Part shown: one piece after another, positions 4,536 through 54,945 of the stretch
Layout: each line of letters opens with the position of its first letter
Numbering within the stretch: the stretch's first letter is position 1
Assembly: GCA_002773535.1 (NCBI GenBank)
Contig: PFAZ01000001.1
Coordinates: 154,806-218,805, forward strand
Source: Candidatus Harrisonbacteria bacterium CG10_big_fil_rev_8_21_14_0_10_40_38
Lineage (GTDB): Bacteria; Patescibacteriota; Minisyncoccia; UBA6257; 1-14-0-10-40-38
Direction of reading: 5' to 3'
Length of the DNA stretch: 64,000 nucleotides
Notes under the pieces: generated by a model
The model's database searches: none
Told to the model about the DNA's origin: nothing
Seen by the model: the letters and a program-made list of their open reading frames with translations, nothing else
Program-made: the position numbers and the translations under genes

Positions 4536-4620
4536 TTTTATTTAAATAATTTTAAAAATCTTTAGTCATCAAGCTACCGTCGCTACCCACTAACTCACCT
4601 AATTTCTAGTGGCTTAAATC

Positions 4621-4799
4621 AGTTGTAAGTTGTCAGTCCGAGCGAATCGAGGTCACAAGTCGCACCGAAGAATTTCCTTCTCCCATTTAATCTTAAGTCA
4701 TAAGTTTTAGGCCATTAGGTCGTAAGTATTTGGAATTTATTTGTAATTTGGGATTTGGAATTTAATTAGGTCAATTAGAAATTAGATTAATTAGTAATC
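4621..4799. repeat. dispersed intergenic repeat, long copy A (related to 15296-15454)
   Basis: Shares AGTTGTAAGTTGTCAGTCCGAGCGAAtCGAGGTCacaAGTCGCACCGAAGaATTTCCTT and the downstream ...TTTGTAATTTGG..TTGGAATTTAATTA...ATTAGAAATTAG blocks with copy B. About 85-90% identity by eye, with a ~30 bp indel. Confidence 0.6.
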
Positions 4800-6633: not shown

Positions 6634-8121
6634 CTAATGTATCTCCTCCCACGAAATCGTCTCATATTCGTCAGAAGTGAGCGGAAATCCTGGCGGAGGC
6701 CCGAATAAAAGGTTTGCATCATATATCAGGTTTCTGTTTGCATATCCCGAACAATAAATCCCACCACATGACCAGCTAAACCCATACCTCTCATTTGTCC
6801 CAATCATTCCATAAAGTGTAATAGTGTCCCTATATGCTTCCTCGCCACAGTAATTTTGATTACCGCTTGGAGCTTTATAATAATATCTTCCAACACGTCC
6901 ATTCTTTGCGATAATAGCTCCGTCAATTCTTAAATCATCCTCGCTATAAAGACCAACATTTATGTCATTCTGCGCAATAAGGCCAATAACATCAGTGCCA
7001 TCATAATTTGTATAAAGCAGATCATGATTAACATTGATACTTGTCTGAGTCCCAGGATTTTCAGGAAATTTCGCGGATGCAACAGTAATTCTTTGTCCAT
7101 CAATCTGCCCGCTAACCCACAAAAAATCCTCAACAAAGATTAAACCATTATTCGGCATTGGATACGTTCCAACAGATGTCGTTGCATTAATACTCCAAAT
7201 CCCCCAGTCATTATCACTGATTTGGTCAGAGCATCCGTTTGGCTTACGCTTGAGATCTGTAGCTTTTGAAATAGTATATGTGTCATCAGGATGAAAAACT
7301 ATTTCATATCCGTGTGTACCAGAATCTGGGTAATAAGCCCCATTTGTTTGCGCATCAGTTTTAATCTGCGCAAGGTCAGCAGCAATACCAGTAAAATCAA
7401 TTGCGGGCACAGGAAAATCTCTTCCAGCCATAAACACATCCGGCCTATTTGGAACTGGCGAGGGTGGAAGAGGATCGGCAGGATCTACGTGAGTATGCAC
7501 GCCAAAATCATACTGCCCCGAGTGATCTGGGTCATTATAAGAAGCAACCGCGCTAGTAATAATATTGTGCGCAATACCGTCAAAGCGAATTCCCCCGTTT
7601 GAATGAATCGGCCCAAAAACTTCAGTTCCTTCGCCAAATCTCATTGTGTCATTTGCCGCAACAGCAAATTTTGCAAAAGAAGATATGCCGAGCTTAGCTT
7701 GTATAGTTCTCGATACAGACGCATCCGAATACAACCTTCCAGTCGAAGTAAGCGTAACAATAGTTGTACCAGAAAGCGGTTCAACAGAAAGCTCTATTTC
7801 CCCAATCTGTTCCCCATCCTTATCATAATAAGGCAAAGTATATGGCCCTGGCTGGCCCGTTCCATTTGTATAATCAGTCGGATCATGTGCAAGATGCCAC
7901 CTATAGTATTCAATCCCCGCCTCCGCTACTTGAAACGCCTGTTCAGAGTTATACGCTCGAAATGTAGAGTTTATGCTATAAAGCGCAAGGTTAATCAGAA
8001 CCGCAATAAAAACTACTGCCAATGCAGACAAAACAAGTGCTTGAATTAAAATCTGCCCACCCTGTCCACCATTAAAAGCAGTTTTTAGTTTTAAGTTTTT
8101 AGTTTTAAGTTTTATATTCAT
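6634..8121 (-). CDS. PilX-like minor pilin / pilus-associated protein
   Basis: N-terminal hydrophobic helix followed by ...AYNSEQAFQVAEAGIEYY, which resembles the PilX_N motif. Sits at the distal end of the pilB-pilC-pilin string. Confidence 0.5.
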   Translation of the reverse strand: MNIKLKTKNLKLKTAFNGGQGGQILIQALVLSALAVVFIAVLINLALYSINSTFRAYNSEQAFQVAEAGIEYYRWHLAHDPTDYTNGTGQPGPYTLPYYDKDGEQIGEIELSVEPLSGTTIVTLTSTGRLYSDASVSRTIQAKLGISSFAKFAVAANDTMRFGEGTEVFGPIHSNGGIRFDGIAHNIITSAVASYNDPDHSGQYDFGVHTHVDPADPLPPSPVPNRPDVFMAGRDFPVPAIDFTGIAADLAQIKTDAQTNGAYYPDSGTHGYEIVFHPDDTYTISKATDLKRKPNGCSDQISDNDWGIWSINATTSVGTYPMPNNGLIFVEDFLWVSGQIDGQRITVASAKFPENPGTQTSINVNHDLLYTNYDGTDVIGLIAQNDINVGLYSEDDLRIDGAIIAKNGRVGRYYYKAPSGNQNYCGEEAYRDTITLYGMIGTNERYGFSWSCGGIYCSGYANRNLIYDANLLFGPPPGFPLTSDEYETISWEEIH

Positions 8122-8738
8122 TCTCCTGTTCTTAAATTTCTCAAATTAATTTGACTGGAAACAGTTATAGGTGGCGGTGGAAGTAGCGGATTATCATCAA
8201 CAATTAAAGAGATCTTAACTAATCGAACATCTGAAGGAACGACTGGATCAGCAAGAGGCGTAGAAGTCCCTTTATAATCAGAACCAAAATACGAAAATAT
8301 CGGAGTCGAAGTAGCCGCAATATGTTTTAATATGGGTCGCAGAGATTCAGAAGCTGTCGAGGTGCTATACGTCAAAGGGTTACCTTCTGGCTTTATTATA
8401 CTCTGCATAAGAGTATCGCCCTGTAGAAAATAATGAACACGTTCACGATAAGAGTCAGAATCAACATTGCTATAAAAAGCAAATGAATTGGGTTCAGTTA
8501 TCTCGAGCGCAAACCCACCCACATTTGATTGCCCCGCAGATCTTACTTGTGGAGCAATTATTGTCATAGCAGATTGAGCATCTCTATAAGCAATAAACGA
8601 ATCATTTAGAAAACCATTTACAGAAAAAATATCCCTCTGAAGCGTTATAAGTACACCGGATAACACCGCCAAAATTGAAAGACTTATTAAAAGCTCGATT
8701 AAAGTAAATCCCTGCTTTGATTTAATAAATTTTTTCAT
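8118..8738 (-). CDS. type IV pilin / pseudopilin (prepilin-type N-terminal methylation domain)
   Basis: KQGFTLIELLISLSILAVLSGV: canonical G/FTLIE class III signal. Confidence 0.75.
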   Translation of the reverse strand: MKKFIKSKQGFTLIELLISLSILAVLSGVLITLQRDIFSVNGFLNDSFIAYRDAQSAMTIIAPQVRSAGQSNVGGFALEITEPNSFAFYSNVDSDSYRERVHYFLQGDTLMQSIIKPEGNPLTYSTSTASESLRPILKHIAATSTPIFSYFGSDYKGTSTPLADPVVPSDVRLVKISLIVDDNPLLPPPPITVSSQINLRNLRTGE

Positions 8739-8739
8739 A

Positions 8740-10566
8740 TTAAGAAGAAGGATCTAAAAATACCTCAATCTCCTCCCACGAAGAACCAACCGTAATTGTT
8801 TGAGAGTAAGAATCGTAACCGGAATGGGAAACGTCTAAAGTATAAGACCCCGAAGACAAACCGTGAAAAAACGCCTGCCCTGGTGGAACACATTCTGAAG
8901 CGTATGTTAAAGTCACATCAGAAACATTTGGCGTAAATGAAGTACTAGCTGTAGAAAGATAAATTTTATATTTAAAATACCTATCACCATTATGATCTGT
9001 ATTTATATCAGGTGATGTAGTTGTATAAAAAGTATTTGAAGTCCCATCAGGTCCCAAAAAATCCCAACTCAAAGGTGAACTAGTTGTAGCCGTTGCGATT
9101 TGGATTTTTAGCGGATCCGAGCCGGTATCAGGTGACTGATTTGTTGGGTTATAAGAAATAGTATAAAAAGTACTATCAGAACCCGTATCAAAAGTTGACG
9201 ATGTTAAAAATCCCGAACTTACATATGTAGTCGTCGAAACCTGATTTAAAGTAAGATCTCCAACAGGGTTGTCGACAGATATATTACCATCCTGACTCTC
9301 ATATCCTGTAAGATCTCCAAAGTCAGCCTGTCCTGACCCTCCCGACCAATCAGTCTGATTAAATGAACCGCGTCCTGTAGTTATTGTCTCATCGTACCCG
9401 CTTTTTGTGAGATTAACTACTGTATTTGCGATTGGGAGCAAAGTAACAGAATCCTTAACAGTTACAAGTAGTGCCTGCGGGTCTTTAGGCTGGACAACGA
9501 TTTTGAAATCCTGAGTCGAATTTGGTAAAAGGTTTAGCGGTATATTTGGTATTGTACCCGCTACATCATACGAAGAATTACTAAACGACATAGAGTACGC
9601 GTCCCACTCAAGATTTGAAACAGTTCTAGTTCCACCACTTCCTGTGGTAAAACCGTTTGAATATTTCAAAATATCTGGAGTGGTTCCAATAAGCTTTGCG
9701 CCAGAAAGAGTGAAGTTTATACTTCCCACCGGCGAACACGACTCCGTAAGACTCGAAACACCAAGAGTGCTTACACGATCGATAGCAAAAGTAACACTAG
9801 TAACTTGACCGGTAGCAACAGTAACCGGAAGTTTTACAGGGTTTGGTACCGAAACACTCGGCTCATATGTTTGATCCGTAGAATAACCCGTCTTTGAAAC
9901 AGTAATGTCATATGTCTGACTCCCTGGCGGAACATCAATGAGTTTCAGATACCCATCAGAATCTGTCTCATCCGTAAGATCAATTTGGGGCGTTGATGAC
10001 GCATTTACAACGTGAACCTTTGCACTCGGTATACCTATCCCATTTGCATCAATCGCTTGAATAAAAATCGCCCCGTTTGAACCAGTAGACTCAAGACTCC
10101 TCGGTGCAACCCGACCGGTAAAATTAAATATCTCTGGTCTATCACAGTTTGCGCAATTAAGTTCAAGTGAAACAAGTTTATAGTCTGCAGGCGAAGTATC
10201 GTTTGGCGCGCCACCAATAGTTCCATCAAACGGATCATCTACATTACGAATTGTAGTAGTGAGAGTAAAAGCATAATTATCCCTATAAAATATCTGAACA
10301 GGTGGCACAACTCCTGAAGGCACGCCGCCAACAACACCAACATCCGAATACGGCATGTTCCTCAAAACCTCTATCTGTTCATTTGCGATAGATGCCGCTG
10401 CAACTTTTTGCCTCGAACTCGTAAGAAGTGTGAGAACAACCGAAAAACCTTGATACAAAACAAGGCCAATAACAACTAAAAGCGCTACCCCAATAACCGT
10501 CTCGAGAAGTGATAATCCTTTGAGACGTTTTTTTTCAAGCAACGGCAAAACGGCATGCTTTCTCAT
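8740..10566 (-). CDS. very large prepilin-type protein (608 aa) with Ig-like beta-rich body
   Basis: KGLSLLETVIGVALLVVIGLVL prepilin N-terminus with Glu at +5; Thr/Ser-rich repeats. Confidence 0.7.
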   Translation of the reverse strand: MRKHAVLPLLEKKRLKGLSLLETVIGVALLVVIGLVLYQGFSVVLTLLTSSRQKVAAASIANEQIEVLRNMPYSDVGVVGGVPSGVVPPVQIFYRDNYAFTLTTTIRNVDDPFDGTIGGAPNDTSPADYKLVSLELNCANCDRPEIFNFTGRVAPRSLESTGSNGAIFIQAIDANGIGIPSAKVHVVNASSTPQIDLTDETDSDGYLKLIDVPPGSQTYDITVSKTGYSTDQTYEPSVSVPNPVKLPVTVATGQVTSVTFAIDRVSTLGVSSLTESCSPVGSINFTLSGAKLIGTTPDILKYSNGFTTGSGGTRTVSNLEWDAYSMSFSNSSYDVAGTIPNIPLNLLPNSTQDFKIVVQPKDPQALLVTVKDSVTLLPIANTVVNLTKSGYDETITTGRGSFNQTDWSGGSGQADFGDLTGYESQDGNISVDNPVGDLTLNQVSTTTYVSSGFLTSSTFDTGSDSTFYTISYNPTNQSPDTGSDPLKIQIATATTSSPLSWDFLGPDGTSNTFYTTTSPDINTDHNGDRYFKYKIYLSTASTSFTPNVSDVTLTYASECVPPGQAFFHGLSSGSYTLDVSHSGYDSYSQTITVGSSWEEIEVFLDPSS

Positions 10567-10682
10567 GCCTCTTAAGTTTAAAACGGATACGTAAAAAATG
10601 TAATGTGCATAGCTATTTCTAGTCGTCAGCTACCAGCTTTAGTCTTTAGTTATAAGTTTTTAGTCTTCAGTTGTAAGTCCGT

Positions 10683-11735
10683 CTACCTCACACTTCTCGT
10701 AAGTTCATATATCGGCGTAATAAACGAAAGCGCAATAAATCCTACAATACCACCCATAAATATAAGTAAAATCGGTTCAAGTATCCCAGATAGATTTTTT
10801 ACAAAATCATCCAGTTCGTTCTCGTAATATTCAGAAAGATAAAAAAGATTCTCTGTAAGGTTTCCGGTATTTTCACCAACCTCAATCATATTAACCAAAG
10901 TTGGAGGAAATCTTTTTGAGTCATGTTCAAGATATTTAGAGAGAAACTCCCCCTTTCTTACAGCCTCACCCGCTTTTTCAAGCTCTCTTTTATATACAAG
11001 GTTATTTAGAGACGCCCCTGAAACCGAAATCGCCTCGATTATCTTGACACCAGATTTTAGCAAAAGACCAAGAGTCCTCGCAAAGTTAGCCATATTGTAA
11101 TTAATTATGGAATGACCAAAAACCGGCACATAGAATAACATTTGATGATAAACATACCGAATCGCTTTAATGGATAGGGCAAAACGCACAATTATAAATA
11201 AAGTAATTGCTCCAACAAGTAACCAAATTCCCTGATTTGTAACCACGTCAGATACCGCAATAAGAATCCTCGTCGTAAGAGGCAACTCTGCGCCAAGAGA
11301 GTTAAATAGCGGAAGGATTTTAGGGAAAACAAAAAGTATCATAGAAGTCGCAATGACAACCGTTGCAAATAAAATGACCATCGGGTAAACCATCGCCCCC
11401 TTCACTCGCTTTCTAAGAGTGGCTTTCTTTTCAAGTTCAACACCAAGATAAAGAAGGTTTTCCGGTAAAGTTCCGCTTACCTCCGCAACCTTAATAATAT
11501 TTATAAAAAGATCTCCAAAAACTTTCGAATATTTTGCAAGACTAGCAGAAAGAAAAACACCCTTATTAGTGTCATCAATCAAAGTCTCAAGAATTTTTTT
11601 GAAATTCTTGTTTTTTGTCTGTTGTGCAAACATTTTAAGACCATTAACCAATGGCACCCCAGCTTTCAGAGTGAGTGAAAGGTTTTTTGTAAAAAGTATT
11701 TTTTCTTGTAAAGGAACTCCTGAAAACAATGACAT
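10683..11735 (-). CDS. pilC: type IV pilus / T2SS platform protein (GspF/PilC family)
   Basis: Polytopic membrane protein with GspF-type repeats, directly downstream of the pilB ATPase. Confidence 0.8.
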   Translation of the reverse strand: MSLFSGVPLQEKILFTKNLSLTLKAGVPLVNGLKMFAQQTKNKNFKKILETLIDDTNKGVFLSASLAKYSKVFGDLFINIIKVAEVSGTLPENLLYLGVELEKKATLRKRVKGAMVYPMVILFATVVIATSMILFVFPKILPLFNSLGAELPLTTRILIAVSDVVTNQGIWLLVGAITLFIIVRFALSIKAIRYVYHQMLFYVPVFGHSIINYNMANFARTLGLLLKSGVKIIEAISVSGASLNNLVYKRELEKAGEAVRKGEFLSKYLEHDSKRFPPTLVNMIEVGENTGNLTENLFYLSEYYENELDDFVKNLSGILEPILLIFMGGIVGFIALSFITPIYELTRSVR

Positions 11736-11770
11736 ACAAAGTAAAAGTTTTTAGTTTTAAGTTTTTTTAA

Positions 11771-13039
11771 TCACTCATGAAACACCCTCAACACCTCCTC
11801 AATTGTTGTAATACCCTGCTTTACCTTATCGAGTCCATCCTCAAGCATTGGTATCATCCCAGCTTTTATAGCTGCATCACGAATCACAGAAGCGTCAGCT
11901 CTTTTCATTATAAGCGATCTTGTCTCTTCGCTGATTTCCAAAACCTCATGTATTCCAACCCGACCTAAAAATCCCGTCTTACCACATTTATTACATCCCA
12001 ATCCAACAGAGAGATCCGGTAGGTTTTGCAAAAACGAGTCCGGCACAGTCCCTCTTAGTGATTCGATCTCCTCCGGTTTTAGTGTTCGCTCCGCCCTACA
12101 CTCATCACAGAGCTTACGCACCAAACGCTGACCAATAGCAACGTTAATGGTTGAAGCAATAAGGAACGGCTCAACGCCCATATCAAGAAGTCTCGGAAGT
12201 GTAGTCGCGGCGTCATTTGTGTGAAGTGTTGAAAGCAGTTGGTGACCTGTCATAGCTGCATTTACAGCAATAGACGCCGTCTCATTGTCACGAATCTCAC
12301 CCACCATGATGATATTCGGGTCTTGCCTCAAAATAAATCTAAGTCCCTCGGCAAAAGTTAATCCGGTTCTCGAATGAACCTGTACTTGATCAATACCCTC
12401 AATAGAATATTCAATCGGATCTTCGATTGTGATTATCGAAACATCTCTGGTATTTAATTGTCCAAGTATCGAATAAAGCGTAGTAGTTTTACCAGATCCA
12501 GTAGGCCCAGTGGCCAAAATCATTCCATAAGGCTTCTTCATTGCCTTTTTTATCTTCTCGAGATTCGATGGAGAAAAACCCAACCTATCAAGTGTAAATC
12601 CTTGCGATTTACCAGACAGTAAACGCATCACGCAGTTCTCTCCATAATAAGTTGGAGCAACCGAAACACGAACATCGACAAACTCCCCTTCCTTAACCTG
12701 TAACTTAAAACGACCATCCTGCGCCGCCTGATGCTCGTCAGTTCTCATACCGGAAATAATTTTTATACGGGTAATAATCTCTGACTGCAGTTCCTTTTTA
12801 AAATTGAAACTATCGTGAAGAACACCGTCGATTCTAAATCGCGCGATTATATTATGTTCAGCAGGATCAATGTGTATATCAGAAGCTCTTGCTTCATAAG
12901 CATTTAAAATAAGCGAATCAACAAGTCGTATTACCGAAACAGCCGTCTCCGGAACCGAGCCTTTTTCGCCTACACCAGCATTTGACGCCTGCCCTCCATG
13001 CTGTGAATTCTGATTTTCCTGTTTTTCACGAATAGCCAT
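11771..13039 (-). CDS. pilB: type IV pilus assembly ATPase (GspE/PilB family)
   Basis: Walker A ILATGPTGSGKTTTLYS, Asp/His boxes, and a C-terminal CxxC...CxxC tetracysteine. Confidence 0.9.
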   Translation of the reverse strand: MAIREKQENQNSQHGGQASNAGVGEKGSVPETAVSVIRLVDSLILNAYEARASDIHIDPAEHNIIARFRIDGVLHDSFNFKKELQSEIITRIKIISGMRTDEHQAAQDGRFKLQVKEGEFVDVRVSVAPTYYGENCVMRLLSGKSQGFTLDRLGFSPSNLEKIKKAMKKPYGMILATGPTGSGKTTTLYSILGQLNTRDVSIITIEDPIEYSIEGIDQVQVHSRTGLTFAEGLRFILRQDPNIIMVGEIRDNETASIAVNAAMTGHQLLSTLHTNDAATTLPRLLDMGVEPFLIASTINVAIGQRLVRKLCDECRAERTLKPEEIESLRGTVPDSFLQNLPDLSVGLGCNKCGKTGFLGRVGIHEVLEISEETRSLIMKRADASVIRDAAIKAGMIPMLEDGLDKVKQGITTIEEVLRVFHE

Positions 13040-15158: not shown

Positions 15159-15295
15159 GGCAATCTCCCTTCACTTAAACATGTTATCAAGAGTTCAAAA
15201 CTTTATTCAGCATAAATAAAACAGACACAATTGTCAAACCAACCCGCACAAAAAGTCTTTAGTTGTTAGTCGTCGGTTATTAGGCTCCAGTCGTC

Positions 15296-15454
15296 AGTTG
15301 TAAGTTGTCAGTCCGAGCGAAGCGAGGTCCTGAGTCGCACCGAAGGATTTCCTTTTCCTATTAGGTCATTAGTATTTGGAGCTTGTTTGTAATTTGGTGC
15401 TTGGAATTTAATTAAAAATTAGATCAATTAGTAATTAGAAATTAGTTTTAAGTT
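15296..15454. repeat. dispersed intergenic repeat, long copy B (related to 4621-4799)
   Basis: See copy A. Embedded between AGTTGTAAGTT/TAGTCTTTAG short tracts at 15250-15485. Confidence 0.6.
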
Positions 15455-15485
15455 GTCAGTTGTAAGTTTTTAGTCTTTAGCTGTT

Positions 15486-23014: not shown

Positions 23015-23121
23015 CTTTTTTTACTTAATAATAATAGCCACAGTATACCAAAACCACAGAAACAAACCAATTTCAGTCGTAAGTCATTAGTTATTAGTTG
23101 TTAGTCTTTAGTTGCAAGTTA

Positions 23122-23724
23122 TTAGTCTTTAGTTTTTATTTGCACATCTCCTTCTCGTAAAACAATCACCTTTCCCCTCTTTACCTCAATGAGCGTCGAG
23201 GGTTTACTCGATGTTTTACCAGATACATAAAAATCAATTTTATCTCCAAAATATTTTTTTGCCTCTTGGATATTTCCCGCAGGCTTCTCCCCTTCAGGGT
23301 TTGCAGACGGCGCAACCAAAGGACTAATTTCAGAAACGAGAGAAATCAGTTTTTTATTTTTTGGCATTCGAAAAGCAAGCTTTTTTGTCCCCCTGTGAAG
23401 ATATTTAAAAATAGGATCTCCCGCAGGCAAAATCACACTCACCTTATCCGGCCAAATTTTTTTCAAAAACTCTAGAGTTTCAATGTTGAGTTTTATTTTG
23501 AAAAGTTCCAAGTCATTTATAGATGAAATCAAAATAATAAACGGCTTTTTGGGGTTTCGTCCTTTCGCTTCATAAATTCTCTCAACTGTTTTTGGTCGTA
23601 ATGCCTGCCCTAAAATCCCATATATAGTATCGGTAGCCAAAACCCCAACACCCCCATCCCTCAAAATTTTTTTATACGAAACTTTCATACAAAACCAAAT
23701 CTCACACTTTAAAATACCCATCAA
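23122..23724 (-). CDS. tsaC: L-threonylcarbamoyladenylate synthase (YrdC/TsaC family)
   Basis: The GGVGVLATDTIYGILGQA motif. Confidence 0.75.
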   Translation of the reverse strand: MMGILKCEIWFCMKVSYKKILRDGGVGVLATDTIYGILGQALRPKTVERIYEAKGRNPKKPFIILISSINDLELFKIKLNIETLEFLKKIWPDKVSVILPAGDPIFKYLHRGTKKLAFRMPKNKKLISLVSEISPLVAPSANPEGEKPAGNIQEAKKYFGDKIDFYVSGKTSSKPSTLIEVKRGKVIVLREGDVQIKTKD

Positions 23725-24325: not shown

Positions 24326-24973
24326 CTATAATTTCTCCACAATACTTCCAATCGACGACTGAAAATTATCATCACTTATTTCAAAATACGGAAAACCATA
24401 TTTTTCCGCTTCAGATTTAAAATACAAACTCATCTCTTTTATGAAACTAGCCATCGCTTCAATTCTTTCTTCGCTATAACCCAGAGCACTCATCCAATCT
24501 TTTCGGGGAAAATCCCTTACATGCTCCAACAACGACTTTAAATGATTTTCGCTGGTGTTTCCTACAAAAACTACATTTTCTGGCTTGTTTTTCATTCCAG
24601 CAACAAGAGATGAAATTATTGCAACTCCTTCTACAATATGAACAGTGTCGTCTTCGCAAAAACTATTACAAAAAGATTCAATAGATGACCACAATGCTTT
24701 TGATTCTCGATTTTGATATTCAACAATTTTTTTCGGATTGTTTAAATGGTTTTCAATCCATTCCTTTTCTGATACAGTCTCCGTTTTCTCAACAATAAAA
24801 AGATCGCCGTCTTTTTGAAAAGATGTTTTCCTTGCTGCATTTCTTATGGCATCAGTCGACACAACGTGTCCATGCACCTTATCGGCAAGCGCAAAAGCAA
24901 TAATTGATTTACCAACTCGTGGTGGCCCTCCTAAAAAATATGTACGCTGAAGCGCATTATTATCTGAATTCAT
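24326..24973 (-). CDS. P-loop NTPase / kinase-like protein
   Basis: GGPPRVGKSIIAFALA Walker A near the N-terminus. Confidence 0.5.
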   Translation of the reverse strand: MNSDNNALQRTYFLGGPPRVGKSIIAFALADKVHGHVVSTDAIRNAARKTSFQKDGDLFIVEKTETVSEKEWIENHLNNPKKIVEYQNRESKALWSSIESFCNSFCEDDTVHIVEGVAIISSLVAGMKNKPENVVFVGNTSENHLKSLLEHVRDFPRKDWMSALGYSEERIEAMASFIKEMSLYFKSEAEKYGFPYFEISDDNFQSSIGSIVEKL

Positions 24974-25078
24974 AGTTTTAAGTTTTTAGTTGTTTGTTTT
25001 TAGTCATTAGTTAGGTTAATTAGGTTAATTAGAAATTTGTTTTAAGTTATTAGTTGTAAGTTGTCAGTTGTAAGTCTC

Positions 25079-25490: not shown

Positions 25491-25563
25491 GCTGCGGGAC
25501 AGGGAATCGAACCCCAATTTCTTGGTTCAGAGCCAAGCGTCCTACCGTTAGACGATCCCGCAA
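25491..25563 (-). tRNA. tRNA-Gln (anticodon CTG)
   Basis: Cloverleaf drawn by hand: acceptor TGCGGGA/TCCCGCA, D arm GTCT-AACGGTA-GGAC, anticodon stem CTTGG/CCAAG with loop CTCTGAA, T arm TGGGG-TTCGATT-CCCTG. Confidence 0.7.
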
Positions 25564-25687: not shown

Positions 25688-26911
25688 CTAATCAATGAAC
25701 GTAAGCGCTTGTCCTCTCTGACCGGCTCTTCCGGTTCTTCCAATACGATGAACATAGTCTTCGTAGCAATTTGGAACATCAAAGTTAATCACGTGTGAGA
25801 CATTTGGTATATCAAGTCCCCTTGCCGCCACGTCAGTAGCTACAAGAATCTTAACCTGATTTCTCTTAAAGGCAATAAGTGCCCTCTGCCTGTGAAACTG
25901 TGTTTTGTTTCCATGGATAGAAGCTGATCTAAAACCCTTAGAATCAAGAATTTTAGAAAGTTTTTCTACGCCATATTTTGTCCTTCCAAAGATAAGCACC
26001 TTATCAAATTCCGGTTTGGACAAAAGCTCGTACAACACATCAACTTTATTTTTTCCGGCTACCCTCACAACATCCTGATTAACGGTTTTTGCCGTATCTC
26101 CGGTCTTTACCGATACCCGAATAGGGTCAGAAAGAAAGTTTCCGATCAAAGCTTCGATTTCACGCGAAAGTGTCGCAGAAAAAAACAAAGTATGCCTCGG
26201 TTTCTTCACATGAGAAACGATAAATTTAATGTCACCGATAAATCCCATATCAAGCATCCTATCTGCCTCGTCCAAAACAAGTGTTCCAAAACGAGAAAGA
26301 TCGAGCGCTTTTCGATTTATCAAATCCTTTAATCTTCCGGGTGTGCCGATTACAAAATTAGGATTATATCGGAGCGCCCTCATTTGCGGATTTATATTTG
26401 CTCCACCAACAAGGATTACAGAGTTAAGTCTTGAATCGCGAGAAAATCCACGAAACTCTTCATCGATCTGTATCGCAAGTTCGCGAGTCGGTACGACAAT
26501 CAAAACTCTTTCATTTCTAGACTTCATCACTTTATTTAAAAGTGGAATCAAAAATGCTCCGGTTTTTCCTGTTCCGGTATTTGCAATACCAACAATATCT
26601 TTACCTGACAAAATCGCAGGAATAGATTGATCCTGAATAGGTGTCGGTGTTTTATAGCCCTTTTTCTCGATATTTCTCTTTATAAGAGAATCTATTTCAA
26701 AATCAGCAAAGCTGTATTTTGGTTCGTATGCCACGACTTCTTCAGCCGGTTGAGCTTTATTGATGAATCGAGAAACATCAATCCCCGCTCCTGTATTTCT
26801 TTTCGAACTACGCCTAGGCCCACGATATGGAGCTCGGCTAAAATTACCCCTATCGCGTGTAAAAGGTCTTCGCACGGAAGACGCGCTGTTATTTTTATAA
26901 TAAGTTTTCAT
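25688..26911 (-). CDS. DEAD-box ATP-dependent RNA helicase
   Basis: Q motif, GTGKTGAF Walker A, VLDEADRMLD, SAT, HRIGRTGRAG. Confidence 0.9.
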   Translation of the reverse strand: MKTYYKNNSASSVRRPFTRDRGNFSRAPYRGPRRSSKRNTGAGIDVSRFINKAQPAEEVVAYEPKYSFADFEIDSLIKRNIEKKGYKTPTPIQDQSIPAILSGKDIVGIANTGTGKTGAFLIPLLNKVMKSRNERVLIVVPTRELAIQIDEEFRGFSRDSRLNSVILVGGANINPQMRALRYNPNFVIGTPGRLKDLINRKALDLSRFGTLVLDEADRMLDMGFIGDIKFIVSHVKKPRHTLFFSATLSREIEALIGNFLSDPIRVSVKTGDTAKTVNQDVVRVAGKNKVDVLYELLSKPEFDKVLIFGRTKYGVEKLSKILDSKGFRSASIHGNKTQFHRQRALIAFKRNQVKILVATDVAARGLDIPNVSHVINFDVPNCYEDYVHRIGRTGRAGQRGQALTFID

Positions 26912-27091
26912 AATGTAGGTCAGACAGACTCGAAAGAGGTTCAGATAAAAAGTAATTGATTAATGATACGAACGACCTCGGGAAACTCCCAAGGCCGGTT
27001 AAACCTATACAATTGAGAAAGTTAGACAAGAACATTGTAGCAAATGACACTCAACTTGTCAATACAACTCAAAAAACACATATTTTATATA

Positions 27092-27127
27092 AAAAAGAGC
27101 CCTGTTCCGAAAGATCGGAACAGGGCT
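27092..27127 (-). terminator. rho-independent terminator for the GC-rich gene
   Basis: GCCCTGTTCCGatctttCGGAACAGGGC 11-bp stem followed on the minus strand by TCTTTTTTA. Confidence 0.55.
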
Positions 27128-27338
27128 AAGCCTGCCTGTCGGCAGACAGGTCCCGAGAGTCTTAGGATTGAGAACCGACTTGCGACGCGACGAACGCGAA
27201 CCCGCTACCATGACCCCACCCGTCGAAAGACCGCCCGTTGCACGCATGGAGCCAGCGACCACCGTCGTGACGGCTAGAGCGCAGCAAGACCGGACCGCCG
27301 CCGGAGTCATTGATGGGTTCGTGCATTGCGACGATCCA

Positions 27339-27803
27339 TCAGAGACCCATGGCTTTGATCTCCTTGTCTGCGAACTTCTCACGAATGAGGCAGGCCAATT
27401 CGGCATTCGGTTTTGGCAACTTGCGCTTGGCGGCCTCGGCGCGAATCTTCTTCGTGACCCGATTGTTGTACTTAAAGAGACAGCCCAGAAGAACGGCGAC
27501 TTCGGTCGTGAGGCCCTTGGTTGGCTTGAAGCCCGACGAACGGAGCACCTGCTTGGCGGAGTCACCTATGCGGAAGCCGTTGCCTTCCAGACGCTTGATC
27601 CAGTCCTCGCCGGTCGTGCCGTCCGAGGTGACCGAGAAGTAGATGACACTGTCTTCCTTGCGCCATTTTCGTTTTTGTTCAGAAACCACAAGATCACCAC
27701 GAAGGAGTTGATCAACTCCTTCCTCGCCACCGAGAATGTTCCACACGGCCTGAATGCGATCCACGGTTCTGTTGTTCTTTGCCACTTTGTCCTCCTTGCT
27801 CAT
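27339..27803 (-). CDS. hypothetical protein encoded in a high-GC insert
   Basis: About 154 codons with strongly G/C-biased third positions, e.g. GGC GAG GAC TGG ATC AAG CGT CTG, unlike the host genes. Opposite-strand shadow ORFs in the ORF track are the usual artefact of high-GC DNA. Confidence 0.5.
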   Translation of the reverse strand: MSKEDKVAKNNRTVDRIQAVWNILGGEEGVDQLLRGDLVVSEQKRKWRKEDSVIYFSVTSDGTTGEDWIKRLEGNGFRIGDSAKQVLRSSGFKPTKGLTTEVAVLLGCLFKYNNRVTKKIRAEAAKRKLPKPNAELACLIREKFADKEIKAMGL

Positions 27804-28066
27804 ATAGAGCACTTAGGTTAAGTCTCTGCTCGTATAGAGCAGAGACACTGGACAGGTTTAGTCACAGCCAGAAAATGCTAAATTTCAAAGTCGCAAGTAA
27901 GCACCATTTGGCTGTGACTAAATATTTCTCAAGTTTTTTAAAGTACTAAAGTACACACAAAAGAATATAATAATAATTCATATCTGTCAAATTAATCCAC
28001 AAATTTGACTTAACAAAATCATGCTTGCATAGTACTCAAACTAGTCATATCATCAATAGACATACT

Positions 28067-28627
28067 ATGAAAAAACTGGTTTTATTACTCGTTTTAGGCG
28101 CTTTATTCTATATAGGTATACGATGGGCCCAAAATGTCCACGAAGAGGCCTCATTTTGCACCCTGGATGGCAAAATATGCCCAAATGGCGCAGTAGTAGG
28201 CAGAATCCCTCCAACTTGTGAATTTGCTCCGTGTGATACCCAAAAATGGAAAACAAAACGTGAAGGCATGGTTGAATTTCAATACCCTGACAGTTTGGAA
28301 ACAACCTATATAGGCGCCCATGAATGGCCGCCCCAGATAACCATAGAAGCCCAACAAAAGGCATGCACCGGTTCAACTCGTAAAATGAACGGCAAAACTT
28401 ATTGCATAAACAGCGAAGTCGGCGCCGCCGCAGGAAGCACATACATTACCTACACATACGAAACAGCACGCGGAGGCAACACCGTCCGAGCAGTATTCAC
28501 TCTTCGCTACCCACAATGTGGTAACTACGCAGAAGGCCCCGAACAAAAGAAGTGCGAGGACGAACAAAACTCATTTAACCTCGACGCCCTTATAGACGGC
28601 ATCATCCGAACCGTCAGAGTTTTCTAA
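28067..28627 (+). CDS. secreted Cys-rich protein
   Basis: MKKLVLLLVLGALFYIGIRWAQN signal/anchor followed by 10 Cys; GC moderately elevated. Confidence 0.5.
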   Translation: MKKLVLLLVLGALFYIGIRWAQNVHEEASFCTLDGKICPNGAVVGRIPPTCEFAPCDTQKWKTKREGMVEFQYPDSLETTYIGAHEWPPQITIEAQQKACTGSTRKMNGKTYCINSEVGAAAGSTYITYTYETARGGNTVRAVFTLRYPQCGNYAEGPEQKKCEDEQNSFNLDALIDGIIRTVRVF

Positions 28628-28689
28628 AACAAAAAAACCGCGAGGCGGATCGGTTTTACCGATCACATTCCTCGCGGCTGTACCACTCG

Positions 28690-29346
28690 TCAATCGACGA
28701 ACGGTATCGTCACGCATATTCCCAAGTATCCATCAGAATCATCTTCATCCCAAGAATCAATAACCCAGCCATCATTCTCGTTGTCCCCGATATATATCGG
28801 TTTCCACCCTTCACTCCAAGTAGCAGACCAGTGAGAATTGTCATTGAGCAAGATCTCTCCACGTAGGTGACGAAAAGACACAAGTGCCTGCGCCACATGA
28901 GCGAGCTCCGCTCGATATAGAATTCGCGATTCATTTCTCCGCAGGTTTTCTTGAACGTCCCAAGAATATCCTACAAACCTTGGCGCAAAATCAATCAACT
29001 TGTATCCAGACGGTGGCTCAGAAATAGCCCAACTGTCAGAAGTTGGTTGATTTATGAAATATGGCAATCTCGCAGTCGGCAAATTTGGCTGAAAACTTCT
29101 TGCGTTTGAAATAAGAACCCTCACAGAAAATGGAAGACAGTACACAACCCTCCAGTCACACCCATTCTCTTCATTCTCTCTTGCGCACGCCTCCATGAGT
29201 CTGATGTTATTAGGTCCGGTAGGGGGCTTAAAAAGCCCGTAATCACCCTCTTGCCCGTAGACAGAAGCGACTTCATTAGCCGAGAGATAACGCTCACTGC
29301 CGAAGATTCTCAGAGCATCGCTTCGTCGTCTACCCAACAAATTCAT
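28690..29346 (-). CDS. hypothetical protein
   Basis: 218-aa ORF; GC moderately elevated; no motif recognised. Confidence 0.45.
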   Translation of the reverse strand: MNLLGRRRSDALRIFGSERYLSANEVASVYGQEGDYGLFKPPTGPNNIRLMEACARENEENGCDWRVVYCLPFSVRVLISNARSFQPNLPTARLPYFINQPTSDSWAISEPPSGYKLIDFAPRFVGYSWDVQENLRRNESRILYRAELAHVAQALVSFRHLRGEILLNDNSHWSATWSEGWKPIYIGDNENDGWVIDSWDEDDSDGYLGICVTIPFVD

Positions 29347-29429
29347 TCCGCACCTCCAAATTGTAAACGTTCCGCCGAACCCCGAATTGGGTTTAGATAT
29401 AATTACACAAAAAAACTATATGGTCAAAC

Positions 29430-30338
29430 CTATGTCTTCAGATATCTCCTTATCGCCACACTCGCAGAAATCACCCCAAGTCCTACTCCAAACAAAATCT
29501 GATACGCAAAAAGTTGAAAGATATGAGAATAAAAGTAGCCGGTAAGATTCATCTCCGGCACAAACGCCTGAACATAAGGCGTGCTAAATGAAATAAACGG
29601 AAGCATCAAAAGCAGGCTCAAAACCGTTGCGATTACTCCAAAAATAACCGCCTCGATAACATAAGGTCCATTTATAAAAAAGTTCGAAGCCCCTACAAGG
29701 CGCATGATATTTATCTCTTCTCTGTTTGAATAAATCGCCAAACGGATTGTGTTAAAAATAATAAGCGCAGCCGTAACAGCAGAAAAAACAATGAGTACCA
29801 AACCAACTTTTTCAATAGTATTTATAAAATCATTAAATCGCGCAATCGCCTTACTCGTTTGCGCAAAAGTCACTTTTTCGATCTGCTCGGTAAAAGATTC
29901 GTTATTTAGAAAAGAAGCTATGAGCGGATAATCTTCTGAATCATTTGCTTTTACATTCAAAGACGCAAGAAGTGGGTTATCGCCGAGTTCCTCGAGAGCT
30001 TTCGCTACAACGGGGTCATCGATGTGCTTCTCGTTAAAAAGCTCCAATGCTTTATCCCTCGACACATAAGTCACCGACTTTACCTCTGCGACAGCCTCAA
30101 GCGAATCTTTCATACGGAGAATATCGTCTTCCGGAACATTCGTTTTAAAATAAACTCCGATATCGATTTTATCCTGAAGTGAAGCGATAGATGCATCAGT
30201 AAGAGCGCTAAACAAGATAAGCCCAGCAAGCACAACAAGAGTCAAAATCATTACATTAACCGTTGCAAACGAAAGTAGCCTGTTTCTCCAAAAGCTTTGG
30301 AATCCATATTTAACTATTCTAAAAAATGTTGTAACCAT
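29430..30338 (-). CDS. ftsX: cell-division ABC transporter permease FtsX
   Basis: FtsX topology: TM1, a large extracytoplasmic loop, then three C-terminal TMs. Directly downstream of ftsE. Confidence 0.8.
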   Translation of the reverse strand: MVTTFFRIVKYGFQSFWRNRLLSFATVNVMILTLVVLAGLILFSALTDASIASLQDKIDIGVYFKTNVPEDDILRMKDSLEAVAEVKSVTYVSRDKALELFNEKHIDDPVVAKALEELGDNPLLASLNVKANDSEDYPLIASFLNNESFTEQIEKVTFAQTSKAIARFNDFINTIEKVGLVLIVFSAVTAALIIFNTIRLAIYSNREEINIMRLVGASNFFINGPYVIEAVIFGVIATVLSLLLMLPFISFSTPYVQAFVPEMNLTGYFYSHIFQLFAYQILFGVGLGVISASVAIRRYLKT

Positions 30339-33274: not shown

Positions 33275-33346
33275 AGCCAGCGGTGGGAATTGAACCCACG
33301 ACCTTTGCTTTACGAAAGCACTGCTCTGCCTCTGAGCTACGCTGGC
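33275..33346 (-). tRNA. tRNA-Thr (anticodon CGT)
   Basis: GCCAGCG acceptor / CGCTGGC + T discriminator; D arm GCTC-AGAGGCA-GAGC; anticodon loop TTCGTAA; T arm GTGGG-TTCAATT-CCCAC. Confidence 0.75.
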
Positions 33347-39701: not shown

Positions 39702-39974
39702 TTATTTATTAGATAAATTATAAACCTTTATAAGTTCCTTAACCGCCTTTTCATTTTCCTTTTTATTTGTCATCTGCTCAGCAACATGAGTACGCAAATG
39801 ATTTTCTAAAAGAAATGAATCAAGGCTTTTAAGCGACCTTTGAATCGAACGGGATTGTTCAAGTAATTCCGGGCAATAAACTTCATTTTCTATCGATTTA
39901 ATAAGTCCATCTATCTGACCCTTAAGTATTTTAGCTCTATGCAGAGCCCTTTTTTTAAGTAATTGATCTACCAT
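39702..39974 (-). CDS. csoR: CsoR/RcnR-family metal-sensing repressor
   Basis: C-terminal 90 aa match the DUF156 helical bundle (ALHRAKILKGQIDGL...YCPELLEQSRSIQRSL). Start moved to the internal ATG at 39974 because the ORF-track N-terminus is read through tRNA-Gly. Confidence 0.7.
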   Translation of the reverse strand: MVDQLLKKRALHRAKILKGQIDGLIKSIENEVYCPELLEQSRSIQRSLKSLDSFLLENHLRTHVAEQMTNKKENEKAVKELIKVYNLSNK

Positions 39975-40030
39975 ACATAAATAGCATATACCCCTATACC
40001 CTATTTGACAATATAAACATGTGGATAATC

Positions 40031-40104
40031 TTGGAGCGGGTAACGGGAATCGGACCCGTGTCTCAACCTTGGGAAGGTCGCGTACTGCCACTGTACTATA
40101 CCCG
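40031..40104 (-). tRNA. tRNA-Gly (anticodon CCC), CCA encoded
   Basis: GCGGGTA/TACCCGC acceptor; D arm GTAC-AGTGGCA-GTAC; anticodon loop TTCCCAA; T arm ACGGG-TCCGATT-CCCGT; ends TCCA. Confidence 0.75.
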
Positions 40105-40412
40105 CATACCAATCTTTATATCACCACTTTCACTTACATTTCAACACAAAAAACTAGCTCTGTTCTATTTGATTTTATAAATCAAATAGAACTACCTTAA
40201 GTCCAACTACGCTAAAAACGCACAATGAAAATGAATTACACAAAACACCTCTGTATATTATTTTTCGAAACTCCGCAGGTAATTCGGCTTGGTTCCCCGC
40301 ATTACGGGGACGAATTACCGAGGACAAGCAAGTGAGCCGCTGGAGCGAACGCAGCGTGTTGAGAAAAGTAATATGGAGAGGTGTTTAATTCAAAAAATAA
40401 AACCACCAATTT

Positions 40413-54890: not shown

Positions 54891-54945
54891 GCTATCAGTT
54901 ATTAGTTTTCGGTTTTCAGTTGTAAGTTGTAAGTCTTAAGTTATC

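Follow-up and report, generated by a model that had tools for sequence, protein, structure and literature searches.

A compact type IV filament locus with predicted ComZ-like and modular tip pilins in Candidatus Harrisonbacteria and related Paceibacteria

Type IV pili are the presumed organ of host contact and DNA uptake in bacteria of the candidate phyla radiation (CPR), and a 64,000-nucleotide stretch of the genome of Candidatus Harrisonbacteria bacterium CG10_big_fil_rev_8_21_14_0_10_40_38 (contig PFAZ01000001.1), which we will refer to as the window, carries at 6634-13039 five consecutive genes that appear to be part of such a machine. The question that this locus raises is what kind of filament its genes serve and, in particular, what its two large proteins of 608 and 495 amino acids (aa) are. 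The original prediction, made from the DNA letters and the translated open reading frames (ORFs), had described it as a type IV pilus-like locus with a giant pilin and a PilX-like protein. A compact type IV filament locus in a CPR bacterium is confirmed by our analysis, as PilB, PilC and prepilin-type proteins were all found, but we infer that the three proteins downstream of PilC are best read as a single tip/priming complex of the GspI-J-K type and not as a giant pilin plus PilX. Our main proposal, to which we give a probability of about 0.75, is that the locus consists of the extension motor of a type IV filament and such a complex. The existence of type IV pili in CPR bacteria, of modular pilins with PF13620 domains and of ComZ and PilX tip pilins bearing a solenoid is already known. 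The new elements are the assignment, by predicted structure, of a very large domain-less protein family of the Paceibacteria to the ComZ class, and a five-gene module which, judged from sequence comparisons, is conserved across this class of bacteria and whose tip proteins seem unusually conserved. ComZ was not mentioned among the top-ranked papers of a combined ComZ/CPR literature search.

The presence of five co-linear genes on the minus strand (Table 1) is supported by both the ORF list of the window and public gene callers, which reported the same five lengths on a contig of the Joint Genome Institute (JGI) with identical copies of the genes. In a Candidatus Harrisonbacteria (Parcubacteria/CPR) metagenome-assembled genome, COU07_00890 matches the 495-aa protein and COU07_00900 the 608-aa protein with 100% identity. 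The genes for the 608-aa and 206-aa proteins are 1 nt apart and those for the 206-aa and 495-aa proteins overlap by 4 nt (ATGA).

The 495-aa protein, encoded by the last gene of the operon, matched no Pfam family at E ≤ 0.1, PilX_N (PF14341) included, and it matched the NCBIfam model for GspK with an E-value of 0.11 only. The earlier description of this protein as PilX_N-like thus finds no counterpart in Pfam, although its placement in the GspK/PilX class is backed by the predicted structure, which is more precisely ComZ-like. The AlphaFold model, based upon an alignment of 84 sequences, has a predicted local distance difference test score (pLDDT) of 92.5 and a predicted template modelling score (pTM) of 0.87, and it consists of a long alpha1 helix (residues 20-79), a four-stranded pilin sheet (94-148), a beta-solenoid of the ice-binding protein type (about 154-470) and a conserved C-terminal strand (481-494). 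In structural comparisons this model scored 16.3 with ComZ of Thermus thermophilus (295 residues aligned), 13.7-15.4 with ice-binding proteins of the DUF3494 solenoid fold, 11.3 with GspK, 9.2 with XcpX, 9.0 with PilA of S. sanguinis and 8.0-8.6 with tapirins, and in a Foldseek search ComZ was the sole significant match (E 1e-11, probability 1.0). The combination of a GspK-like pilin domain with an ice-binding-type beta-solenoid, which characterizes the ComZ fold, is present in this model, and the 495-aa protein is predicted to be a ComZ-like tip pilin of the GspK/PilX class. Within its family the leader peptide is variable and basic, Gly22 is conserved in 74 of the 84 sequences (with Ala in 6 others) and is usually preceded by Lys or Arg, and the fifth position after it is occupied by a hydrophobic residue or Gln, never by Glu. 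The absence of a cleavable class III signal from the large ORFs had been named beforehand as the observation that would speak against a pilus locus; such a signal is present in the 608-aa and 206-aa proteins, as it is in a 237-aa prepilin elsewhere in the window, whereas the 495-aa protein has the Gly at -1 and the hydrophobic helix but no Glu at +5, i.e., it conforms only in the non-canonical manner of GspK and ComZ. Ten residues of the 495-aa protein (H173, D197, P198, D199, H200, H209, T210, H211, H76, and H79) are invariant or nearly so in 22 close relatives; with the exception of H79, this His/Asp set is not conserved in the wider family, and the part at about 173-211, which lies on a long and confidently modelled loop, may form a metal site specific for the subfamily. 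The possibility that the protein is an enzyme, considered in view of the motifs DPDHSG...GVHTH, was rejected because these motifs are lost in the wider family and the fold is that of a non-enzymatic ice-binding-type solenoid.

ComZ consists of a GspK-like pilin domain and a beta-solenoid resembling ice-binding proteins, it binds both PilA2 and DNA, and it is proposed to be a DNA receptor at the tip of the Thermus pilus (PMC6561018). The present locus resembles the ComZ-PilA2 pair (PDB 6qvi; PMC6561018) in the non-canonical signal without Glu5, in the module of the adjoining pilin gene, which like PilA2 is similar to GspI and TTHA1218, and in the position of the 495-aa gene, which closes a series of minor-pilin genes. 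However, no sequence similarity between ComZ and the 495-aa protein is detectable (in the structural alignment 14% of the residues are identical), PilA2 is a small pilin with a subdomain whereas the partner here is a modular pilin of 608 aa, and in contrast to Thermus the CPR bacterium at hand is monoderm-like and has no secretin, and its 495-aa protein is strongly acidic (net charge about -25). A counterpart of PilA2 is seen in the GspI-like module within the adjacent 608-aa gene, and any binding of this module or of DNA by the 495-aa protein is conjectural. A similar architecture, in which a pilin fold bears a bulky triangular solenoid of the ice-binding type, has been described for cyanobacterial PilX, which strictly co-occurs with a PilV-type partner and has been proposed to form a tip plug that replaces PilY1 (bioRxiv 10.64898/2026.02.12.705559). 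The likeness is one of modelled structure; the cyanobacteria are a different phylum and, unlike their PilX, the CPR cassette lies in one operon with a dedicated short PilB and a PilC.

The 608-aa protein is, according to its predicted structure, a modular minor pilin of the GspI/PilV class. It has the class III signal KG|LSLLE, and although this copy matched Pfam N_methyl with an E-value of 0.065 only, many of its homologues pass this model; in the family Gly17 is present in 40 of 42 sequences and Glu22 (+5) in all 42, with the consensus G|FTLIE. In the AlphaFold model (pLDDT 83.4, pTM 0.61) a 50-residue alpha1 and a small pilin sheet (about 90-153) are followed by a series of beta-sandwiches. 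Residues of about 20-153 are predicted to form a GspI/PilV-like module and the distal part comprises several beta-sandwich domains that are transthyretin-like, CarboxypepD_reg-like (PF13620) or CnaB-like. A modular type IV pilin is defined by an N-terminal pilin module plus a domain that is not specific to pilus biology, and the 608-aa protein, with its class III signal and these domains, is one of them; the same succession of signal, pilin module and PF13620-type carbohydrate-binding-like domains was surveyed by Raynaud et al. 2021 (PMC8179133), where N_methyl plus PF13620 is among the 15 commonest modular pilin architectures, with examples from CPR. The description of this protein as a giant pilin therefore holds as to the pilin but not as to the giant, its size being unexceptional for an architecture that is already common. 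The survey was confined to cataloguing this architecture; what the present analysis adds is the context within the operon, the GspI-like nature of the module and the ComZ-like pairing. The domain searches that had been suggested for both large proteins thus gave a marginal N_methyl match and PF13620 for the 608-aa protein and, as stated above, no Pfam match for the 495-aa protein.

The 206-aa protein has the signal QG|FTLIE (Pfam N_methyl, E 3.9e-8), of which G10, F11, and E15 are invariant in five orthologues. Beyond its N-terminus no known family or structure was matched in Pfam, NCBIfam and PDB searches, and the match to TIGR01711 (gspJ; E 0.02) covers residues 9-66 only; its position and size suggest a subunit of the GspJ/PilW class. 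For all three pilins, sequence and profile searches of the PDB gave matches to the N-terminal helix or chance matches only. As the 495-aa protein lacks a canonical PilD site, it could be asked if it and the 608-aa protein are filament subunits at all, or N-terminally anchored surface proteins that merely share an operon with the motor. In favour of this, ComZ itself is not a predicted PilD substrate (PMC6561018) and PilD signals are also lacking in PilX1 and PilX2 of TM7x (PMC11623550). Against it, both models show the full pilin fold, with a long alpha1 on a four-stranded sheet, matching GspK and GspI, the Glu5 is invariant in the 608-aa family, and the genes are in strict synteny with pilB-pilC and a canonical pilin. 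We therefore regard a non-filament role as very unlikely.

The arrangement of the three genes provides further support for a tip complex: the order 608-206-495 matches the I-J-K order of the GspK-GspI-GspJ tip (PDB 3ci0) and the PilV-PilW-PilX order of type IVa pili (T4aP), and the conserved class III signals of the 608-aa and 206-aa proteins, the GspK-like pattern of the 495-aa protein and the strict synteny point in the same direction. The K-like subunit resembles GspK in having a large extra domain but no Glu5, and it would have a role in priming and capping; the absence of Glu5 is expected of a top-most subunit, which has no partner above it. Unlike the GspIJK and T4aP core minor pilins, there is no fourth subunit resembling GspH/FimU and no PilY1, and the extra modules are much larger and of other folds, while the J-like status of the 206-aa protein is conjectural. 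In the mechanism that we envisage, the PilB-type hexameric ATPase and the PilC-type membrane platform would form the motor. The 608-aa, 206-aa, and 495-aa proteins would enter the membrane by their N-terminal hydrophobic helices, the first two being processed behind their conserved Gly by a prepilin peptidase whose gene lies elsewhere, and through these helices they would form a trimer in which they take the places of GspI/PilV, GspJ/PilW, and GspK/PilX/ComZ, respectively. This trimer would nucleate the polymerization of a major pilin encoded elsewhere and would hence end up at the filament tip, displaying the rigid beta-solenoid of the 495-aa protein and the beta-sandwich chain of the 608-aa protein as a cap and ligand-binding head. 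For this placement, the proposals of a beta-solenoid PilX as tip plug in cyanobacteria (bioRxiv 10.64898/2026.02.12.705559) and of ComZ as tip pilin in Thermus (PMC6561018) provide precedents.

Table 1. Positions in the window of the operon genes, of the gaps between them and of two further genes discussed in the text.
Feature	Position	Strand	Basis or remark
pilB/gspE-type assembly ATPase, 422 aa	11771-13039	minus	Pfam T2SSE
pilB/pilC intergenic gap, 35 nt	11736-11770	minus	partly heptamer tract
pilC/gspF-type platform protein, 350 aa	10683-11735	minus	Pfam T2SSF
pilC/608 intergenic gap, 116 nt	10567-10682	minus	partly heptamer tract
Modular minor pilin (predicted), 608 aa	8740-10566	minus	class III signal, pilin module, beta-sandwich domains
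Prepilin-type minor pilin, 206 aa	8118-8738	minus	Pfam N_methyl
ComZ-like tip pilin (predicted), 495 aa	6634-8121	minus	predicted fold
fn3-like membrane protein, 564 aa	4860-6554	plus	convergent with pilus operon
Orphan prepilin, 237 aa	41276-41989	minus	Pfam N_methyl

The 495-aa family is very large. It comprises more than 3800 clusters at 90% identity, the best 120 matches listed being 55-69% identical, and 801 clusters at 50% identity in a library of 1.8 billion proteins, and relatives are present in at least 567 genomes when one genome per GTDB species is scanned. Synteny was examined by tblastn of the window proteins against 80 related loci from these genomes, all of which, where a lineage is named, belong to the Parcubacteria/Paceibacteria (viz. 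Harrison-, Taylor-, Yanofsky-, Wolfe-, Lipton-, Vogel-, Kaiser-, Giovannoni-, Campbell-, Zambryski-, and Sungbacteria), apart from many TPA records that bear only the generic title "uncultured Candidatus Saccharibacteria". Homologues of the 608-aa and 206-aa proteins lie directly upstream of the 495-aa homologue in 76 of the 77 loci with room for them, pilB-pilC lies upstream in the same orientation in 59 of the 67 loci where there is room, and the commonest layout, observed in 49 loci, is pilB>pilC>608>206>495. Downstream of the cassette, 18 of 72 loci have a gene for a canonical pilin (about 140-150 aa; GFTLIELLVVIGIIAILA...) and about seven loci a PilM-like gene, while in one relative (L001, 16373-21045) the triplet occurs without pilB/pilC and a separate PilM-PilO-PilB(MshEN) cluster is located about 5 kb away. 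In view of these downstream genes and this separate cluster, the cassette is best regarded as one module of a larger, scattered pilus system. Based upon 56 complete operons, the median identity to the window proteins is 53.9% for the 495-aa protein, 50.9% for PilB, 45.3% for the 608-aa protein, 36.2% for PilC and 35.6% for the 206-aa protein; the 495-aa tip pilin hence appears to be as conserved as PilB and more so than PilC, in a ranking that is biased by the choice of loci. The opposite pattern has been reported for Saccharibacteria, where the pilins of TM7x are poorly conserved across CPR (PMC11623550). PilX1 and PilX2 from the T4P-1 and T4P-2 loci of TM7x, proposed to be tip adhesins, resemble the present proteins in being the largest minor pilins, with C-terminal accessory domains and no predicted PilD signal (PMC11623550). 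Their accessory folds are a beta-jelly-roll and a 7-bladed propeller, whereas that of the 495-aa protein is a solenoid; in addition, their loci include PilM/N/O, PilT, and PilD, unlike the window, and unlike the TM7x pilins the present cassette is highly conserved.

This conservation bears on what the tip might bind. The original prediction had presumed both host attachment and DNA uptake, and the present results do not discriminate between these two conjectural functions. If the pilus attaches to a host, the ligand of the solenoid and of the beta-sandwiches in the 608-aa protein would be a glycan or another polymer exposed on the host cell or, more widely, on an environmental surface, and retraction or anchoring would lead to episymbiosis. 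CarboxypepD_reg/transthyretin-like and CnaB-like domains occur typically in adhesins and in Gram-positive pilins, modular pilins with PF13620 have been read as carbohydrate binders (PMC8179133), saccharibacterial tip pilins of the PilX type mediate host binding (PMC11623550), the associated fn3 membrane protein points to cell-surface biology, and the 495-aa protein has structural similarity to tapirins. However, adhesins specific for a host normally diverge fast whereas the tip genes are the best conserved ones of this operon, the window contains no PilT for retraction, and no lectin-type site was identified. We consider host attachment to be a possible function, to which we give somewhat less than even odds. 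The conservation of the head across orders of the Paceibacteria points instead to a structural role, as plug or in priming, or to a common ligand, and it argues against an adhesin specific for a host. A purely structural plug was considered as a third option for the ligand question.

DNA would be one such common ligand. By analogy with ComZ, the 495-aa protein and the PilA2-like module of the 608-aa protein could form the tip DNA receptor of a competence pilus, with uptake via ComEC, and the imported DNA would supply nucleotides to an organism that is unable to make them. The facts that ComZ is the only significant full-length structural match of the 495-aa protein, that it binds DNA and the GspI-like PilA2 (PMC6561018), that a universal ligand fits the 50-69% identity of tip proteins across orders, and that ComEC and pili are reported to be highly expressed in a co-culture of Paceibacteria (PMC10936435) are all in accordance with this. 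On the other hand, the 495-aa and 608-aa proteins are both strongly acidic (the latter with a net charge of about -28), the lysines by which ComZ contacts DNA could not be mapped, and linkage of the locus to comEA, comEC or dprA was seen neither within the window nor in those relatives that were inspected. Further, the solenoid PilX of cyanobacteria serves both competence and motility pili, and therefore this fold does not imply DNA binding. For these reasons a competence pilus seems to us rather unlikely. The same doubt applies to the wider proposal that 608-206-495 is a conserved head of the Paceibacteria pilus for the capture of DNA, or of another universal ligand, standing at the front of nutrient and nucleotide scavenging; we offer it as a speculation. 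Were it true, the conservation of the tip, which equals or exceeds that of the motor, would be due to an essential role as receptor shared by the entire class and not to adhesion to particular hosts, and scavenging by this route would be what enables the life of auxotrophic ultra-small cells.

Irrespective of the ligand, a huge family of "hypothetical proteins" without any Pfam domain now has a structural and functional reading, as ComZ-like tip pilins, and a compact five-gene module has been defined across the Parcubacteria/Paceibacteria, although it represents no new kind of machine. Because pili are the presumed organ of CPR bacteria for host contact and DNA uptake, its three conserved and surface-exposed proteins are targets for antibodies, binders, CRISPR interference and heterologous expression, and the question is raised of why a tip complex should be as conserved as the motor.

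The motor itself was identified with high significance. The 422-aa protein is an ATPase of the PilB/GspE family (Pfam T2SSE, E 6e-124) in which the Walker A motif GPTGSGKT is located at residue 178 and the CxxC motifs at 311 and 349; a tetracysteine pattern of two CxxC motifs is typical of assembly ATPases of the GspE/PilB type and not of PilT. Likewise, the 350-aa protein, which contains two T2SSF repeats (E 6.8e-52), belongs to the PilC/GspF family of platform proteins. None of the more specific NCBIfam models was passed by either of them. The ATPase scored 506.6 bits with GspE (cut-off 630.25; model positions 105-485), 487.7 bits with PilB (TIGR02538; cut-off 675.65; model positions 169-562) and 247.7 bits with ComGA (cut-off 300), and the platform protein 277.2 bits with GspF (cut-off 424), 255 bits with PilC, also below its cut-off, and 127.1 bits with ComGB (cut-off 240). 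The ComGC and ComGE models gave only weak N-terminal matches in the NCBIfam scan, and with these and the ComGA and ComGB scores the locus is not assignable to the ComG pilus. The slightly higher scores with GspE and GspF than with PilB and PilC, the resemblance of the tip subunits to GspI and GspK and the absence of PilT could all be explained if the locus encoded a pseudopilus similar to that found in type II secretion systems (T2SS), i.e., a short piston capped by GspI-J-K that pushes proteins through the wall or S-layer. However, the GspE and GspF scores are below the equivalog cut-offs, and the scanned ORFs contain neither GspC, GspD, GspL and GspM nor any further Gsp component that could be detected, so that the locus is not assignable to the T2SS; the tip modules of about 350 and about 450 residues are bulky and unlike those of T2SS pseudopilins, and PilM-like genes adjoin the cassette in some relatives. 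CPR cells are not known to have an outer membrane, which also counts against a pseudopilus. We hence consider a pseudopilus highly improbable and retain the type IV filament motor as the preferred reading. In one related locus (L005, 4757-6505) the operon PilB is a 582-aa protein with an N-terminal response-regulator receiver domain.

The statement of the original prediction that the window has no pilT, pilM/N/O/Q or prepilin peptidase was borne out by Pfam and motif scans. The motif scans revealed no second Walker A of the T2SSE type, and hence no PilT, and no PilD-like GxGD motif in the window, and no Pfam match to Peptidase_A24, PilM, PilN or PilO was obtained for the multi-transmembrane and unknown ORFs scanned; the combination of PilM/PilN/PilO with PilT that marks a T4aP is thus not found within the window. 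Prepilin peptidase, PilT and PilMNO were also not found within 10 kb beyond either end of it. Several of our observations weigh against the proposed motor plus tip complex. A working filament cannot be demonstrated from the sequence, because PilD, PilT, PilMNO and a clear major pilin are all lacking in the window and in the 10 kb flanking each end. Some 100-170 residues at the N-terminus of GspE/PilB have no counterpart in the ATPase (the first 168 positions of the PilB model are unmatched), and with them the domain that couples GspE/PilB to GspL/PilM is missing. The 84-member profile of the 495-aa family gave only chance matches at E ≤ 1 against PDB sequences, and neither ComZ nor GspK can be connected to it at the level of sequence, so a common ancestry with ComZ is not supported by sequence and the likeness is one of predicted fold. 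The assignment of the 206-aa protein to GspJ/PilW is derived only from its position, size and signal, and the ranking by identity favours the 495-aa protein, as the loci were picked by their similarity to it.

A candidate for the major pilin is provided by a fourth prepilin-type gene, the 237-aa ORF whose existence apart from the operon had been noted before and is upheld by the signal RG|FTLLE and an N_methyl match (E 6.3e-5). It is the sole prepilin in the window outside the operon. Its signal is followed by a GspG/PilA-like segment, INPQNFLAKGRDARRKQDL, it has weak matches to the NCBIfam ComGC and GspG models, and its N-terminal 86 residues are 33% identical to a small pilin that follows the operon in L005. 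In relatives, a pilin of about 145 aa is often encoded directly after the operon. The convergent neighbour of the operon, which was missed in the earlier reading, encodes a 564-aa protein with an N-terminal signal or transmembrane segment, fn3-like domains, a Pro/Thr linker, a C-terminal transmembrane anchor and a Lys-rich tail. It is 33% identical (E 3e-80) to the product of a gene following the operon in L005, and homologues are present in 15 of the 80 loci, located between the 608-aa and 206-aa genes in seven of them, after the 495-aa gene and a small pilin in five and convergent in three. Known relatives are encoded on the same contigs as the pilin families, and it is probably an accessory surface component in a part of the clade.

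The operon genes had been described as separated only by short repeat tracts, and this is correct in part. The tracts are arrays of heptamers, (RACTNNN)n, such as AAAACTT/AAAACTA. On the minus strand, one of this latter kind occupies part of the pilB/pilC gap (about 11743-11766) and another, (RACTNNN)x6, part of the pilC/608 gap (10638-10679), but there is none between the 608-aa and 206-aa genes, and the third (8077-8114) lies directly 3' of the stop codon of the 206-aa gene and within the 495-aa ORF, of whose first 15 codons it forms a part that is translated as KLKTKNLKLKT. A start of the 495-aa gene beyond this tract was considered and discarded, as there is no in-frame ATG, GTG or TTG between the tract and the hydrophobic helix. 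In both the 495-aa and the 608-aa gene, only about 1 nt separates a Shine-Dalgarno-like sequence (AGGAG/AAGAGG) from the annotated ATG (8121-8130 and 10566-10575, minus strand), and if translation of the 608-aa gene began at one of its in-frame TTG codons, at positions 7 and 9, the leader would have the length typical of the family (about 8 aa). The true starts of these two genes may thus differ from those of the longest ORFs. A scan of the operon for promoters and terminators was uninformative, the counts being no higher than in shuffled sequences.

In the window as a whole, eleven such tracts with three or more heptamers were counted, all of them on the gene-coding minus strand, compared to 0.12 expected from shuffles; besides those of the operon they include 4618-4638, 15251-15313, 15441-15475, 23072-23134, 24971-25076, and 54915-54942 (minus strand). 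Most tracts are located directly 3' of the stop codon of the upstream gene, and they could be an RNA-level intercistronic element. They are nearly absent from 85 related loci, where three loci contain one tract each, and hence look specific to this genome or lineage.

Some additional features of the window were also observed. Nearly all of its genes are on the minus strand and none of the 2-kb bins departs from a negative GC skew (-5.4 when cumulated), which is consistent with the window being located within a single replichore. Three transfer RNA (tRNA) genes are present (25492-25562, 33275-33346, and 40035-40105), the last of which, on the minus strand, is overlapped by a 136-aa ORF (39702-40112, minus strand) whose 5' part is probably spurious. 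The region 26000-30000, especially 27059-27821, has a G+C content of 0.44-0.45, compared to about 0.40, and overlapping ORFs on both strands; no Rfam family matched it at the gathering thresholds, and it may be non-coding or foreign.

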